This document shows, piece by piece, positions 56,203-64,000 of a DNA stretch of 64,000 bases. A program made the position numbers and the translations under genes. Numbering within the stretch: position 1 is the stretch's first letter; each line of letters opens with the position of its first letter. Source of the DNA: an uncultured SAR86 cluster bacterium (GTDB taxonomy: Bacteria > Pseudomonadota > Gammaproteobacteria > Magnimaribacterales > D2472); contig CABXFU010000005.1 in NCBI GenBank assembly GCA_902511575.1, positions 2,753 through 66,752 of the forward strand. The letters are read 5' to 3'. The notes under the pieces were generated by a model. That model searched no databases and was not told the DNA's origin. It saw nothing but the letters and a program-made list of their open reading frames with translations.

Positions 56203-57210
56203 ATGTCAGATAAAGATAAAAACTTAAACGAGACTTTATCTCAAATTGAAAAGCAGTTTGGTAAAGGAACCGTCATGAAAATGGGAGATAGAGAAATTGT
56301 GGATATGCCATCAGTTTCTACTGGTTCATTAGGTCTTGATATAGCGTTAGGTATTGGCGGTCTGCCAAAGGGAAGGGTTGTAGAAATCTTTGGACCTGAA
56401 TCATCTGGAAAAACAACATTAACCCTTCAAGCTATTGCTGAATGTCAAAAAGCTGGTGGTACTGCTGCATTTATAGATGCTGAGCACGCACTTGATCCGA
56501 ATTATGCTGAAAAATTAGGTGTAAACGTAGATGAACTTTTACTTTCTCAGCCTGATACAGGAGAACAAGCATTGGAAGTTACGGATATGCTTGTAAAATC
56601 TGGAAGCGTAGATTTGATTGTCGTAGACTCTGTTGCTGCTCTAACACCGAGAGCTGAGATTGAAGGCGATATGGGTGATCATCATATGGGCCTTCAGGCT
56701 CGCTTGATGTCACAAGCTCTAAGAAAAATTACAGGAAACATACAGCGCTCTAATGCAATGGTTATATTTATTAATCAAATCAGAATGAAGATTGGAGTTA
56801 TGTTTGGAAATCCTGAGACGACTACTGGGGGTAACGCCTTAAAATTTTACTCATCAGTTCGATTAGACATTAGACGTATAGGCGCTGTTAAAGAAGGTGA
56901 GGAGGTTGTTGGCAATGAAACAAGGGTCAAAGTTGTTAAGAATAAAGTTTCACCTCCCTTCAAGCAGGCAGAGTTTCAAATCATGTATGGAGAGGGAATT
57001 AATACAGAAGGTGAGATTCTAGAGCTAGGGCAAAAGCTTGAGTTGGTTGAAAAATCTGGATCTTGGTATAGCCATAATGGCGAAAAAATTGGACAAGGCA
57101 AAGTAAATGCAAGTAAATTTTTAAAAGAAAATACTAAGATTAGGGATAGCCTAGTAAAGGAAATTAGAAAAGCTTATATCCCATCAGTGAACAAAACAGC
57201 TAAGAAATAA
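56203..57210 (+). CDS. recA: Recombinase RecA
   Basis: [33 protein letters not shown]. Confidence 0.99.
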
Positions 57211-59788: not shown

Positions 59789-60079
59789 ATGCCGATTTAT
59801 GAATATAAATGCTTGAAATGTGAGCATCAATTCGAAGTTATTCAGAGATTTTCAGATAATCCTGTTGAAACTTGCCCTGCATGTAATAGAAAAACAGTAA
59901 AAAAATTAGTTTCTGCTCCTTCTTTTAGGTTGAAGGGAGGGGGTTGGTATGAAACTGATTTTAAAACTGGCTCTAAAAAGAATATAGTAGACACTAAGGA
60001 TGAAAAATCAAAACAGCCCAAAGAACAAACTAAAACTACTGATCAATCTAAAAACAAAAGTCCAGATAAAAAAACTTAA
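59789..60079 (+). CDS. FmdB-family zinc-ribbon protein
   Basis: MPIYEYKC..C...[17 protein letters not shown]; usual position upstream of aspS. Confidence 0.92.
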
Positions 60080-60096: not shown

Positions 60097-61863
60097 ATGC
60101 GTTCACATTATTGCGGAGATATTAATAGTTCAGACATTGGTAGCAATATTGAGATTTCTGGATGGGTTCATAAGCGAAGAGATCACGGCGGTGTAATTTT
60201 TTTAGATATTCGTGATTTGCATGGAATTGTTCAAGTTGTTTTTAATCCAGATTTAAAAGAAATATTTGATACTGCAGATTCTTGCAGAAGTGAGTATGTC
60301 GTTAATATTACAGGATTGGTTAGAAAGAGAATTGAGGGTGCCATCAATCCAAAAATGGCAACAGGAGAGATAGAAATTGAAGCAAACGGTTTAACGATTT
60401 TTAGTTTAGCTGTTACTCCCCAATTTCCACTAGATGACTACCAAGATGTGAATGAGGATGTAAGGCTGAAACATAGATTTTTAGATTTAAGACGCCCTGA
60501 TGTTAATCAGCGGCTGGTCAAGAGGTCACAGATCACTTCAAAGATTAGGTCTATCTTAGAAAATAATAATTTTCATGAAGTTGAAACTCCAATATTGACT
60601 AGAGCTACACCTGAAGGAGCAAGAGATTATTTAGTTCCAAGCAGAGTGCATCCCGGCGAGTTTTTTGCATTACCTCAATCTCCTCAGCTATTTAAACAAT
60701 TGCTTATGATTGGTGGGCTGGATAAATACTATCAAATTGCTAAATGTTTTAGGGATGAAGATTTGCGGGCAGATAGGCAGCCTGAATTTACTCAAGTTGA
60801 TATTGAGGCTTCATTTGTTTCTACCGAAGAAATAATAGAACTCGGAGAGCACCTGATTACATCGCTACTCTCTGAATTTACAGATTATCAAAAAGCAGAA
60901 GTGCCTAGAATTACATATAAAGAATCCATTGAAAAATACGGATGCGATAAGCCTGATTTAAGAATTCCACTTGAGCTTAATGAAATTTCTGAGCTTGTAA
61001 AAGATGAAGAATTTAAAGTATTTTCTGGTCCAGCAAATGATCACGCTTCACGAGTGGTGGCCCTCAAGGTTCCAGAAGCAGCATCCATGACAAGAAAAAA
61101 AATTGATGAGTATACCGATTTTGTTGGTAAGTTGGGTGCTAAAGGTCTTGCATATATTAAAGTTGTAGATCTTGATCAAGAAAATGGACTTCAATCACCA
61201 ATACTGAAATTTTTTCAAAAAGAAACAATTGATTCAATTCTTGCTTCTCTAAATGTGCAGAATAATGACATTATATTTTTTGGAGCTGGAAAGGCAGACA
61301 TTGTAAACCTCTCAATGAGTTCATTAATAAAAAGATTGGGTGAAGATTTTAGTTTAATGAATTCTTCATGGGCGCCATGTTGGATAGTAGATTTTCCAAT
61401 GTTTGAAAGAAATAAAGAAAATAACCTTACTTCTTTGCATCATCCATTTACTTTACCCGCTGTAACAATTGATGAATTAAGAAATGATCCCGATAATTCT
61501 TTGGCCTGCGCATATGACTTTGTTTTAAATGGTTATGAGCTTGGGGGAGGTTCTTTAAGGGTGTATGAGCCTTCAATGCAAAAAGAGATATTTTCAATAC
61601 TAGGCATTTCTCCTGATGAAGCTAAAGAAAAATTTGGTTTCCTTTTGTCAGCATTATCATCTGGATGTCCGCCTCACGGAGGCATTGCATTTGGTTTAGA
61701 TAGAATTGTTATGTTGCTATCTGATACAACTAATATCCGTGATGTTATTGCTTTTCCTAAAACCCAAAGCGCATCTTGTTTGCTTACTGATGCTCCAGGC
61801 ATGGTCTCTGATGATCAGCTTGATGAGTTGAACGTCAAGTCCACTTTTGAACCGGAGCAATAG
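60097..61863 (+). CDS. aspS: Aspartate--tRNA(Asp/Asn) ligase, probably non-discriminating
   Basis: MRSHYCG, RRDHGG (His associated with ND-AspRS), [23 protein letters not shown]; gatCAB present in the window. Confidence 0.97.
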
Positions 61864-62601
61864 ATGGCTGGACATTCCAAATGGGCGAACATTAAACATC
61901 GAAAAGCAAGGCAGGACGCATCTCGAGGAAAAGTCTGGACCAAGGTTATCAGGGAGATTACAGTTGCAGCAAAAGGGGGTCCAGATCCAAGTGATAATCC
62001 CAGACTTCGACTAGCTTTGGATAAAGCAAATGCTGCAAATATGCCCAAGGATACAATCAAGCGAGCAATCCAAAAGGGTTCTGGAACAGGCGAAATGGGC
62101 GTCATTGAAGAGCTAACTTTCGAAGGCTATGGTCCTAATGGTGTTGCAATTTTAGTTGAAACGATGACGGATAATAGAAATAGAACAGTAGCAGATGTCC
62201 GCCATGCTTTTTCAAAATTTGGTGGCAACATGGGTACCGACGGCTCAGTTGCTTACCTTTTTAATAAGCTAGGAATAGTTCAAGTCGATCTAACTAACGA
62301 TGAAGATCAGATCATGGAGATTGCATTAGATGCTGGAGCAGATGATTTTACTGTGACAGAAGATTATTTTGAAATCATTTCCACCCCTGCAAATCTATCT
62401 GCTGTTACCGAGGCTTTTAAGAAGAACAATATTGAAACACTGTTAGCCGAAAATACAATGAGAGCCGATACATTAGTTAATCTAGACCAAGAAGCATCTG
62501 AGAAAGTTCTTAAAATTATGAATTTCATGGATGATCTTGACGATGTTCAAGAGGTTCATACAAATGCTGAATTTCCTGAAGACTTTACTGAAGAGGTCTA
62601 G
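61864..62601 (+). CDS. yebC: YebC/PmpR family protein
   Basis: MAGHSKWANIKHRK, EGYGP, TDNRNRT, DDVQEV. Confidence 0.97.
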   Translation: MAGHSKWANIKHRKARQDASRGKVWTKVIREITVAAKGGPDPSDNPRLRLALDKANAANMPKDTIKRAIQKGSGTGEMGVIEELTFEGYGPNGVAILVETMTDNRNRTVADVRHAFSKFGGNMGTDGSVAYLFNKLGIVQVDLTNDEDQIMEIALDAGADDFTVTEDYFEIISTPANLSAVTEAFKKNNIETLLAENTMRADTLVNLDQEASEKVLKIMNFMDDLDDVQEVHTNAEFPEDFTEEV

Positions 62602-62603
62602 TT

Positions 62604-63026
62604 GTGGCAATTAATTCAAGAACTAAAGGAGCTAATTTTGAAAGAGAAATTGGCAATCTTCTTGTTGAGCAGCTAGGGTTAAGTCAACCCGTTAAAAGAA
62701 TTCTTGAACAAACACGAACAAAAGAATTGCCTGATTTAAAACTAGGCAGATGGTGCTTAGAATGCAAAAGATATGGGGATGGATCTGAACCATCCTCAGA
62801 TTGGTGGGATCAAGTTTTGGCAGCCACAGGAGAAGGGGAGTTTCCAGCTTTAATTTATAAGTTTAATCGCCGACCAATTAAAGTCAGGATACTTGCTGGA
62901 ACTTTAATTCCAGAGTTAGATTTTTCCCCTATGACAATTGATTTAATGTGGGAAGATTTTATAGAAATTCTTAGGCACCTCTTTCAGGTAGATATTGAGC
63001 AACATGAATCCTCATTTCAGGTCTAA
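62604..63026 (+). CDS. PD-(D/E)xK nuclease, putative Hjc/phage-type Holliday junction resolvase, in the ruvCAB position
   Basis: SRTKGANFERE (E13), PDL (D44), LECKR (E53, K55), WWDQ...PALIYKFNR; no RuvC GIDPG motif. Confidence 0.75.
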   Translation: MAINSRTKGANFEREIGNLLVEQLGLSQPVKRILEQTRTKELPDLKLGRWCLECKRYGDGSEPSSDWWDQVLAATGEGEFPALIYKFNRRPIKVRILAGTLIPELDFSPMTIDLMWEDFIEILRHLFQVDIEQHESSFQV

Positions 63027-63420
63027 AGATTTCCATTGCAGAATTTATGTGGAAGATACTGATTTTCAGGGTGTTGTGTACCATGCAAATTATCTCAAAT
63101 ACTTAGAAAGAGCTCGCTCTCAGTTTTTGATTGAAAATAACTTATCTCAAACAGATGCAATGTCAAAAGGGAATGAATCTTATGTTGTTAAATCAATCAA
63201 TCTTTCCTATTACCATCCGGCAATATTAGAAGATGAGTTGACCATAAAAACAGAAATAGAGTTGGTTACCAAAGCTAGAACTATATTTTTTCAATCTGTT
63301 TTGAATTCAAAAAATGATACACTCATTTGCAAGGGCGAAGTGGAAGTTTGTTTTATTAACAATGACTCAGGCAAACCCAAAGCTTTCCCTTTGGGTTTAT
63401 TAAATTTATTTAAGAGCTAA
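63004..63420 (+). CDS. ybgC: Tol-Pal-associated acyl-CoA thioesterase YbgC
   Basis: RIYVEDTDFQGVVYHANYLKYLERAR; directly upstream of tolQ. Confidence 0.93.
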   Translation: MNPHFRSKDFHCRIYVEDTDFQGVVYHANYLKYLERARSQFLIENNLSQTDAMSKGNESYVVKSINLSYYHPAILEDELTIKTEIELVTKARTIFFQSVLNSKNDTLICKGEVEVCFINNDSGKPKAFPLGLLNLFKS

Positions 63421-63421
63421 T

Positions 63422-64000
63422 ATGGGTGACTTTTCAGTTATAGATTTATTTCTCCAGGCAAGCCTGATTGTTCAATTGGTAATGATTTTATTGTTAATGG
63501 TTTCAATCATTTCATGGATCGTTATTTTTGAAAGACATTTTAATTTAAGCAGAATCAAACAAGCTAACAAAGAATTTGAAAAAGAATTTTGGTCTGGAAA
63601 AGATCTGAATGAGTTATATGAAGGTATTGATAAAATTTCTCATGATGAATTGGTAGGCTCTTTGCGAGTTTTTAAACATGGATTTGGGGAATTTTTAAGG
63701 CTTAGCGAAGGTCAGCAAATTACAATTGAAGACCTGGAAAGTGTTAATAGAGCGATAAGAGTATCTCTAGCAAGAGAAGAAGAGTCGTTAATGCACCATC
63801 TTCCTTTTTTAGCTAATGTTGGATCGGTGAGCCCTTATGTTGGACTATTTGGAACAGTTTGGGGAATTATCAATTCATTTCAAGGTCTTTCTGATGCGAC
63901 TCAAGCAACCATCAATGCTGTTGCCCCTGGAATATCAGAAGCTTTAGTTGCAACAGCTCTAGGTCTTTTTGCTGCAATACCAGCCGTAGTTGCATACAAT
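63422..64000 (+). CDS. tolQ: TolQ (partial, runs off the window end)
   Basis: Manual translation: MGDFSVIDLFLQASLIVQLVM...FWSG...SVSPYVGLFGTVWGIINSF...VAPGISEALVATALGLFAAIPAV. Confidence 0.95.
   Translation, partial: MGDFSVIDLFLQASLIVQLVMILLLMVSIISWIVIFERHFNLSRIKQANKEFEKEFWSGKDLNELYEGIDKISHDELVGSLRVFKHGFGEFLRLSEGQQITIEDLESVNRAIRVSLAREEESLMHHLPFLANVGSVSPYVGLFGTVWGIINSFQGLSDATQATINAVAPGISEALVATALGLFAAIPAVVAYN

Follow-up and report, generated by a model that had tools for sequence, protein, structure and literature searches.

The analyzed window is a stretch of 64,000 nucleotides (nt) from an uncultured gammaproteobacterium of the SAR86 cluster (assembly GCA_902511575.1, contig CABXFU010000005.1, positions 2,753 to 66,752). 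Near its end, according to the sequence and the list of open reading frames (ORFs), lies an ORF of 140 amino acids (aa) at 62604–63026 on the plus strand, starting with GTG at 62604. On the basis of the reading frame and its matches to PF24608 and phrog_244, it is considered here as the gene of a PDDEXK_15 nuclease and a candidate Holliday junction resolvase of SAR86. The gene order in the window is proS (minus strand), a 96-aa ORF, aspS (60097–61863, plus strand; assigned by ORF and synteny), yebC (61864–62601, plus strand; assigned by synteny and by Pfam TACO1/YebC domains, E 5e-54 and 1e-33), the 140-aa ORF, a ybgC-like 4HBT thioesterase gene (62995–63420, plus strand; Pfam 4HBT_2, E 2e-15) and tolQ (63422–64000, plus strand; assigned by ORF and by orthologues in relatives). 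The last gene is cut by the window end and is the first of tolQRAB-pal; tolR, tolA, tolB, and pal follow it further along the same contig, C5. The gene aspS starts a conserved block, aspS-yebC-(ruvCAB or nuclease)-ybgC-tol.

The stop codon of yebC is TAG at 62599–62601, and the GTG of the nuclease gene follows 2 nt downstream. A GAGG sequence was read at 62593–62596 (plus strand), 7 nt ahead of this GTG and within the final yebC codons; it is Shine-Dalgarno-like and may function as such. The thioesterase ORF is listed from a TTG at 62995, with an alternative ATG at 63004 that is likely its start, and the 3′ end of the 140-aa ORF overlaps it. Since the ORF is packed between yebC and the overlapping thioesterase gene, there is no room for ruv genes. 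An earlier note on this DNA, made from the sequence alone, had reported the yebC end at 62601, the GTG at 62604, the overlap with ybgC, and the lack of room for ruv genes, and all these coordinates were confirmed.

No tRNA gene was found between 52000 and 64000 of the window, i.e., none within 10 kb of the nuclease gene. The repeats flanking the gene, both direct and inverted, were 16–17 nt long and imperfect, with nothing longer found; since they are so short and imperfect, no att site is claimed, as the earlier note had also held. The GC content of the nuclease gene (0.365–0.375) shows no shift relative to that of the neighbouring genes (0.31–0.445). Promoter-like sites numbered 16, compared with 13.6 ± 3.7 in shuffled sequences, and in view of this lack of excess no promoter is claimed. 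According to the window ORFs and the Pfam scan, no methylase or partner gene is located beside the nuclease gene.

The Pfam scan of the 140-aa protein gave a sole match, PF24608 (PDDEXK_15, “phage putative PDDEXK endonuclease”), covering residues 4–96; its score of 29.2 bits (E 9.8e-7) exceeds the gathering threshold of 27. All 53 aligned relatives matched the same family, with a best E-value of 1.7e-19. In the PHROGs library, the protein matched phrog_244 (E 3.2e-11), which is described there as “RusA-like Holliday junction resolvase”. The NCBIfam scan of the protein gave no match, and at E ≤ 1 it matched none of the Pfam models RuvC (PF02075), RusA (PF05866), RecU (PF03838), and Hjc (PF01870); for comparison, outgroup RuvC proteins score 154–192 bits on the RuvC profile. 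The previous statement that RuvC motifs are missing is consistent with this result. When 1.84 billion cluster representatives were searched exhaustively, matches at E ≤ 0.001 numbered 363.

Conservation of residues was analyzed in two family alignments, of 53 and 105 members. The protein of the window contains K8-G9-x-x-F12-E13-R14-E15 (KGANFERE, codons at 62625–62648), P43-D44 (62730–62735), E53-C54-K55 (62760–62768), and, between W67 and R89 (62802–62870), W67-W68-x-Q70 and P81-x-L-x-Y85-K86-x-x-R89, which presumably form a WWxQ helix and a PxLxYKxxR strand (all on the plus strand). G9, E13, and K55 were invariant in the family alignments (E13 and K55 in 105 of 105 members). In the 105-member alignment, D44 and E53 were each found in 104 sequences, R14 in 92, W67 in 98, W68 in 99, and P81 in 102, while position 86 was K or R in 103. 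R6, K8, R32, Q36, D44, E53, W67, W68, and Q70 were conserved in at least 90% of members. The residues E, D, and ExK of the PD-(D/E)xK superfamily are kept, and the motifs are not there by chance. The residues listed in the earlier note (E13, D44, E53-C-K55, WWxQ, and PxLxYKxxR) therefore all stand at the positions given for them and are conserved across the family.

In addition, a C-terminal motif [FY]xxD[ILY]xx[HY] was found at residues 127–134 (codons F127–H134, 62982–63005, plus strand). It occurs in all 38 of the SAR86 species copies and in none of the 98 family members from outside SAR86, which restricts it to SAR86 in this comparison. The motif could be a peptide that arose after domestication and serves for docking.

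As for the distribution of the nuclease, two samples were analyzed: 151 genomes of the order (4 families, 21 genera, 55 high-quality genomes) and 101 genomes of the family, including the genome of the window. The nuclease was found in 93 of the 101 genomes of the family with 60–97% identity, and PF24608 was found in 138 of the 151 genomes of the order, in 53 of the 55 high-quality genomes and in 21 of the 21 genera. Five of the eight family-level misses were checked: three of these genomes also had no yebC, and in two the contig ended in or just after yebC. These five misses are assembly gaps; three more at the family level and ten further at the order level lie outside the check. Close homologues bear the name “SAR86 cluster bacterium” in their source.

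The gene order was compared in 11 regions from all four families, in which proS and the small ORF are followed by aspS-yebC-nuclease-ybgC-tolQRAB-pal, except that family f4 has lost ybgC or carries its tol genes at another place. In a broader survey of 38 species-representative loci, taken from a scan of 185,579 species, yebC was located at most 60 nt upstream of the nuclease gene in all 38, and the gene directly downstream was ybgC in 30 loci and tolQ in 8. The latter, thioesterase-less order yebC-nuclease-tolQ (8 of 38 loci; L049, L050, L051, L179–L186) belongs to family f4 and its relatives. Two genomes, G106 and G118, have an MFS transporter gene in place of tol genes downstream of the nuclease gene.

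Four outgroup genomes show other genes at this place: yebC-ruvC-ruvA-ruvB-ybgC-tolQRAB-pal in G226, aspS-x-yebC-ruvC-ruvA-x-ruvB-tolQR in G318, yebC-ruvCAB-cmk in G321, and aspS-yebC-ruvC in G356. The outgroup order yebC-ruvC-ruvA-ruvB is the ancestral state, and the nuclease gene lies in situ in the ruv slot. The ancestral slot aspS-yebC-ruvC-ruvA-ruvB-ybgC-tol had been proposed before, and it was recovered with ruvC-ruvA-ruvB in three outgroups and with ruvC in the fourth; the survey of the yebC–ybgC interval showed the nuclease in SAR86 and ruv genes in the outgroups.

Genes of the Ruv proteins were sought with profiles in all six frames read through stop codons, so decayed ruv copies should have been detected too. 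In the window's own assembly (G000; 1.39 Mb, 25 contigs, marker completeness 83.5%), profile searches did not find RuvC, RuvA_N, RuvB_C, or RusA, and tblastn with queries from two outgroups gave no match to RuvA, RuvB, or RuvC at E ≤ 1e-3. RuvC and RuvB_C were found in 0 of the 101 genomes of the family, and RuvC, RuvB_C, and RuvA_N over the cut-off in 0 of the 151 genomes of the order. The picture is therefore not that of a RuvABC system kept elsewhere in the genome with an ORF sporadic in relatives: RuvABC was found in 0 and the nuclease in 138 of the 151 genomes, and with the nuclease following yebC in all 38 surveyed loci, the proposed takeover of the operon slot is well founded.

A lone RuvA_N match in the order (G124, 19.8 bits, below the cut-off) was taken as chance. 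RuvB_N matches in the genome of the window (up to 29.8 bits, in frames of 421–811 aa) were read as other AAA+ proteins, because no RuvB_C is present and a real RuvB scores 263–272 bits.

Among 301 Gammaproteobacteria with a completeness of at least 90%, RuvC was found in 296, including genomes of 0.3–0.4 Mb; four of the 301 genomes are flagged as unpublished, and the tally without them is 292 of 297. The five RuvC-less genomes comprise three from SAR86 and two fragmented assemblies (180 and 310 contigs). Outside SAR86, PF24608 is rare. It was found in 2 of 297 other Gammaproteobacteria, in one of them below the cut-off, and in 7 of 300 Pseudomonadota, all with genomes of 2.9–4.9 Mb. All tested carriers also have RuvC (G368, G392, and a further five of five); the pairing of a present nuclease with a RuvC that was not found is therefore seen only in SAR86. 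One of them, G368 (L052, G368:C1:20500-33000), is a 1.1-Mb, 99%-complete gammaproteobacterium, in which a 111-aa PDDEXK_15-like ORF (25.7 bits, just under the cut-off) lies between hydrolase and ferritin genes.

Selection on the locus was assessed in 11 within-genus pairs. The dN/dS ratio was 0.030–0.081 for the nuclease, 0.020–0.045 for yebC, 0.020–0.077 for tolQ, and 0.047–0.140 for the thioesterase gene; the nuclease is under purifying selection, like yebC and tolQ. Twelve sequencing runs recorded as RNA contain all or part of the stretch. Four marine metatranscriptome runs, belonging to three studies, yielded contigs that cover the nuclease gene and bridge both of its junctions, namely yebC–nuclease (62338–62815 and 62230–62741) and yebC end–nuclease–ybgC start (62539–63053); these contigs inform on cover and bridging alone, may include DNA, and give no transcript ends, strand, or level. 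In the contigs from the four runs, the yebC stop at 62601 is TAA rather than the TAG of the window (a G>A change; all contigs in three runs and most in the fourth), which is a strain difference.

Phages are a major source of relatives. Seven cultured or assembled phages encode proteins with 31–41% identity, and three of these proteins are annotated as “putative PDDEXK endonuclease”; the carriers include the Roseobacter phages CRP-406, CRP-701, and CRP-811, phage C72C1, and EBPR podovirus 1 (gp49). Searching IMG/VR with a 10-sequence alignment of phage-type members revealed at least 566 stretches of viral contigs that encode relatives of these members. Neighbourhoods were analyzed for the 80 best loci, all of them from a single group of related phages. 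In all 61 loci with enough flank, a RecE/exoVIII-like exonuclease gene was located upstream and the genes for a 200-aa protein and a primase-helicase downstream, and holin, endolysin, terminase, and tail genes were found near phage PDDEXK_15 copies. In Roseobacter phage CRP-701, the gene adjoins a PD-(D/E)XK exonuclease-like gene, SSB, and primase/helicase. The protein of about 200 aa encoded between the phage PDDEXK_15 and the primase-helicase (L060–L139; e.g., L054:6614-7210 and L105:4617-5228) is conserved in all 61 of these loci and gave no Pfam or PHROG match. The CRP-701 gene in the corresponding position encodes a helix-hairpin-helix/RNA polymerase alpha-CTD-like domain.

One SAR86 genome, G013, contains a second, phage-type copy, which shares 42% identity with the core gene and 85% with an IMG/VR contig. 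It lies in a prophage (L054, G013:C4:46000-58500) together with genes for a RecE-like exonuclease, the 200-aa protein, a primase-helicase, a minor tail protein, and a small terminase. Since the neighbouring peptidase gene of this contig is 66% identical to that of the window's genome, the prophage is placed in a SAR86 chromosome.

A maximum-likelihood tree was constructed for 69 proteins and rooted at the midpoint. Eight SAR86 chromosomal copies and two metagenome proteins formed one clade (support 100/98), within which family f1 was well supported (97/96) and f3 weakly (86/34). The sister of the SAR86 clade (94/90) was a clade of 30 rows with all 17 viral rows. Because the root is a midpoint, we infer the direction of transfer, which was probably from phage to host, since the family is overwhelmingly viral, or sporadic, elsewhere. 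The probable phage derivation suggested earlier is thus upheld, by the viral stretches as well as by the viral rows in the sister clade.

According to profile searches against the Protein Data Bank (PDB), the top matches among solved structures are archaeal Hjc/Hje proteins. With the 53-sequence alignment, these were 1gef (E 0.017), 4tkd (0.073), 1ob8 (0.076), 1hh1 (0.47), and 2eo0 (0.67), and with the 105-sequence alignment 1gef (0.037), 4tkd (0.15), and 2wcz (0.23); ribosomal protein L25 and a potassium-channel domain were also among the matches. The family was additionally compared by hhalign with rudivirus Hjc. The starting protein was SIRV2 ORF121, which matches PF01870 at E 8.8e-20, and an identical protein is named Holliday junction resolvase in a source. 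The comparison gave E 0.0021 (probability 13%) with SIRV2 ORF121 alone, E 9.7e-5 (58%) with 13 rudivirus Hjc sequences, and E 9e-4 (23%) with the 105-sequence family alignment. Every alignment spans the E, PD, and ExK motifs; D44 aligns with the PD of the rudivirus protein and E53 and K55 with its ExK.

In Pyrococcus furiosus Hjc, the residues E9, R10, R25, D33, E46, K48, and K81 are reported to be essential (PMC10956419). The alignment with Hjc 1gef places E13, R14, R32, D44, E53, K55, and K86 opposite them, respectively, and these counterparts are conserved in 92 to 105 of the 105 family members; E13 and R14 are predicted to be catalytic. The analysis concludes that the active site is of Hjc type. 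Since the protein falls below the Pfam Hjc model, it may be regarded as Hjc-like in its working and is not placed in the Hjc family. Of the proposed “Hjc/phage-type resolvase”, the phage family and the archaeal Hjc among the top structure matches hold, and the assignment to the Pfam Hjc family does not.

The rest of the recombination toolkit was also analyzed. RecA is present in the genome of the window. RecG, detected by its wedge domain (RecG_wedge), was found in 122 of the 151 order genomes: 40/40 in family f2, 39/40 in f3, 28/30 in f4, and 15/40 in f1, the family of the window. In f1, RecG was not found in genera g5 (0/8), g4 (0/4), g8 (0/3), and g2 (0/1), and genus g6 has two remnants of the wedge domain with in-frame TAA stops (G043:C20:77151-77336 and G056:C15:2687-2875); the recombination toolkit seems to be still shrinking within SAR86. 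The window's genus has RecG in 7 of 8 genomes. The wedge model gave no match in the window's own genome, which is ascribed to an assembly gap and not to a loss because the flank of a congener's recG runs off the end of contig C12. The tblastn match to RecG in this genome, in a 1101-aa frame only, was read as Mfd by its length and its helicase-core match.

Five single-contig genomes from four families (G001, G008, G102, G106, and G107) gave no RusA, RadA/Sms, or RecQ over the cut-offs. Sub-threshold partial matches to the NCBIfam models of RadA and RecQ, in frames of other sizes, were attributed to Lon, RecA, DnaB, RecG, or other helicases.

Taken with high confidence are the genomic facts, i.e., the protein family, the order-wide swap, and the kinship with phages. 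The functional reading built on them, that the PDDEXK_15 protein is the cellular Holliday junction resolvase of SAR86, anciently domesticated from a phage, is judged probable. According to it, a single capture from a phage would have taken place before the SAR86 order diversified, the nuclease gene would have replaced ruvC-ruvA-ruvB in the interval from yebC to ybgC, and inheritance since then would have been vertical. RecA would make joint molecules, and the protein, presumably homodimeric as are Hjc, RecU, and RusA, would bind four-way junctions and introduce paired nicks using K55 and Mg2+ that is coordinated by E13, D44, and E53. RecG, wherever it is retained, would drive branch migration, in parallel to the rescue of E. 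coli ruv mutants by RusA; in genera without RecG, migration would depend on RecA or be spontaneous. In this scheme, we infer the fold, the dimer, the junction specificity, and the partnership with RecG.

Some precedents are available for these steps. RusA together with RecG suppresses ruv defects of E. coli, and a methanogen Hjc restores repair to RuvC-less E. coli (PMC10956419). Activation of rus is reported to improve even ruv recG strains, through the cutting of junctions moved by RecA alone (PMC10956419). The idea that the nuclease took over the function of the whole RuvABC resolvasome was partly sustained: RuvABC was not found order-wide, whereas RecG is kept in most SAR86, and therefore RecG plus a resolvase is likelier than one protein standing for three Ruv proteins. 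Similarly, a minimal system in a streamlined bacterium was suggested, and genome-wide searches indeed found no ruvA, ruvB, ruvC, or rusA, but the trait is ancient and shared by the entire SAR86 order rather than peculiar to one genome.

Several points weigh against the resolvase reading. No PF24608 member with a tested function was found in the literature, and PD-(D/E)xK nucleases have many different roles. “RusA-like” in phrog_244 is a label only, as the Pfam RusA model is unmatched; the automatic names of the family clusters are “restriction endonuclease type IV Mrr”, and Pfam Mrr_cat was touched by 2 of the 53 relatives. The likeness to Hjc is weak: the E-values of the structure matches are 0.017 or worse, the hhalign probability varies from 13 to 58% depending on the alignments, and, while the window protein has no match to the Pfam Hjc model, 5 of the 53 relatives touch it (best E 2.4e-4). 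The position beside yebC is synteny and not a functional link. The window's own assembly is incomplete and the other genomes are a sample, the RNA libraries carry the limits given above, and RuvX (YqgF) was found in five of five single-contig SAR86 genomes.

The main rival is a broader structure-selective role, in which the nuclease would act, for example, on reversed or stalled forks, D-loops, three-way branches, or flaps, in the manner of promiscuous phage debranching enzymes, and junctions would mostly be removed uncut, by reverse migration by RecG. It accords with the statement that resolvases of phages tend to be less selective than those of cells (PMC3864405) and with the placement of the relatives in phage replication/recombination modules, where the usual role is debranching before packaging; RecG, found in 122 of the 151 genomes, is able to remove junctions by reverse migration (PMC10956419). 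However, several genera lack RecG and have the nuclease, no other resolvase candidate was found apart from RuvX, the nuclease replaces ruvC positionally, and every catalytic and DNA-binding residue of Hjc type is retained. This role is considered unlikely.

The cluster names of Mrr type and the contacts with Mrr_cat would agree with a restriction-like, defence, or selfish nuclease, unrelated to recombination, that landed by chance at a ruvCAB deletion, and one phage copy gave a weak PADLOC PD-DExK match (E 0.0036). Three SAR86 chromosomal copies, in contrast, gave no PADLOC match at E ≤ 0.1, and there is no adjacent methylase or partner gene. Moreover, the gene is single-copy (bar the G013 prophage copy), near-universal, and syntenic in four families, its dN/dS is as low as that of the housekeeping neighbours, unlike that of patchy, fast-turning defence genes, and outside SAR86 the family is sporadic (7 of 300 genomes). 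Because of this universality, synteny, selection, and lack of PADLOC matches, such a role appears quite improbable.

Still less credit is given to the view that RuvX or an unrecognised protein is the real resolvase and that PDDEXK_15 serves in RNA processing or DNA turnover. RuvX occurs in all five single-contig genomes, and Rocha et al. (2005) raised YqgF as a possible substitute in genomes without RuvC and RecU (PMC1193525). In most genomes, however, YqgF co-occurs with RuvC or RecU, and its resolvase activity is treated as undemonstrated in that paper; RuvX also occurs outside SAR86, whereas the nuclease is found in precisely the lineage that yielded no RuvC. Finally, the GTG start and the overlap with the next ORF might suggest that the ORF is not a real gene, or is a decaying remnant, which is hardly conceivable given in-frame stops in only 1 of 94 family matches and 1 of 139 order matches, a dN/dS of 0.03–0.08, membership in a Pfam family, and cover in RNA libraries.

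Returning to the preferred reading of a cellular resolvase, a bolder version of it can be put forward tentatively. PDDEXK_15 might be the only junction-resolving enzyme of SAR86, in what might be the most stripped-down recombination end-game known from a free-living bacterium. With no RuvA, RuvB, RuvC, RadA, RecQ, or RusA, and in several genera no RecG either, RecA and one 140-aa phage-derived nuclease would finish recombination and fork repair. The C-terminal motif would then be a post-domestication docking peptide for a host partner such as RecG, RecA, SSB, or the sliding clamp. Archaeal Hjc, tied to PCNA by its PIP tail, offers a parallel for this proposed peptide.

Among related systems, phage PDDEXK_15 genes belong to the same Pfam family, form part of the sister clade, and have the same catalytic residues as the SAR86 copies. 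Unlike the latter, they are accessory genes in exonuclease/SSB/primase-helicase modules and are without the C-terminal motif. Archaeal Hjc/Hje and rudivirus Hjr (PF01870) are likewise small (about 120–145 aa) with the motif order E ... PD ... ExK; all seven residues reported as essential in P. furiosus Hjc have conserved counterparts in the SAR86 nuclease, and viral versions exist (SIRV2 ORF121). The SAR86 nuclease differs in its WWxQ and PxLxYKxxR blocks, its SAR86-specific C-terminal motif, and its bacterial host, which has nothing corresponding to the Hjc partners PCNA and Hjm.

RusA of the E. coli prophage DLP12 is also phage-derived and RuvAB-independent, and together with RecG it offsets the loss of RuvABC (PMC10956419). 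It differs from the SAR86 nuclease in fold and family; the Pfam RusA model is unmatched by the nuclease, and the SAR86 genomes searched for RusA yielded none. The E. coli gene lies silent in a prophage, whereas that of the SAR86 nuclease belongs to the fixed core and occupies what was once the ruv slot. In Aquifex aeolicus, RusA may be the cellular resolvase. Aquifex RusA cleaves at G (PMC10956419), and this bacterium resembles SAR86 in having RecA and RecG and no RuvAB; among 117 genomes, RuvAB was missing from only two with RecA, A. aeolicus being one of them, with RecG kept there (PMC1193525).

Displacement of RuvC by an unrelated resolvase is itself a known kind of event, exemplified by RecU and RusA, and RecU is the textbook case of non-orthologous displacement of a resolvase. 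Like the SAR86 nuclease, RecU of Firmicutes and Mollicutes is of PD-(D/E)xK type and replaces RuvC lineage-wide (PMC1193525). The RecU lineages, however, retain RuvAB, with RecU rarely beside them (PMC1193525), whereas RuvA and RuvB were not found in SAR86; furthermore, the SAR86 nuclease sits in the old ruv locus and has no Pfam RecU match. Stand-alone VRR-Nuc nucleases are small PD-(D/E)xK modules of phages and bacteria that have been likened structurally to Holliday junction resolvases (PMC4103454); the Pfam scan of the SAR86 nuclease gave PF24608 only.

Two neighbours of the locus can be described in addition. The 96-aa ORF between proS and aspS (59789–60079) encodes two CxxC pairs and a lysine-rich tail, and its position is kept in all SAR86 families and in two outgroups. 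A recA Pfam match was found at about 56218–57003 of the window (contig C5:58970-59755), 5.6 kb upstream of the nuclease gene, and in five single-contig SAR86 genomes from four families a RecA-like match lies 4.6–10.7 kb from the nuclease gene; this closeness may be plain synteny.

With regard to the literature, missing recombination markers in SAR86 are at least partly in print (Ramfelt et al., PMC11582366): the closed genome of a SAR86 isolate has a marker completeness of only 86.7%, with 28 marker genes truly missing. In the two Magnimaribacterales papers (PMC11582366 and a 2025 preprint), marker Table S1 aside, the terms “ruv”, “recG”, and “Holliday” do not occur, nor does “endonuclease” in the first or “nuclease” in the second. 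No publication was found that joins SAR86 with the Holliday junction, ruvC, or ruvB, or that describes a replacement of ruvCAB, and none was found that mentions PF24608 or PDDEXK_15. What is new is that, in a dominant order of free-living marine bacteria, a PDDEXK_15 phage nuclease has displaced ruvA, ruvB, and ruvC together at their own locus; also new is a functional hypothesis for PF24608. This hypothesis is directly testable, as the protein is small, E. coli ruv mutants can serve as a read-out, and a SAR86 isolate now exists (PMC11582366).

RuvAB with a RuvC or RecU resolvase is counted as a nearly universal core of bacterial recombination. If the nuclease is indeed the resolvase, SAR86 would provide a clear-cut example from nature in which one phage gene has ousted an entire housekeeping machinery, and a function would be assigned to the uncharacterised family PF24608. 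It would also help to explain why marker-based completeness underrates SAR86 genomes, and it would bear on how streamlined cells complete recombination, a process that shapes the population structure of marine bacteria.

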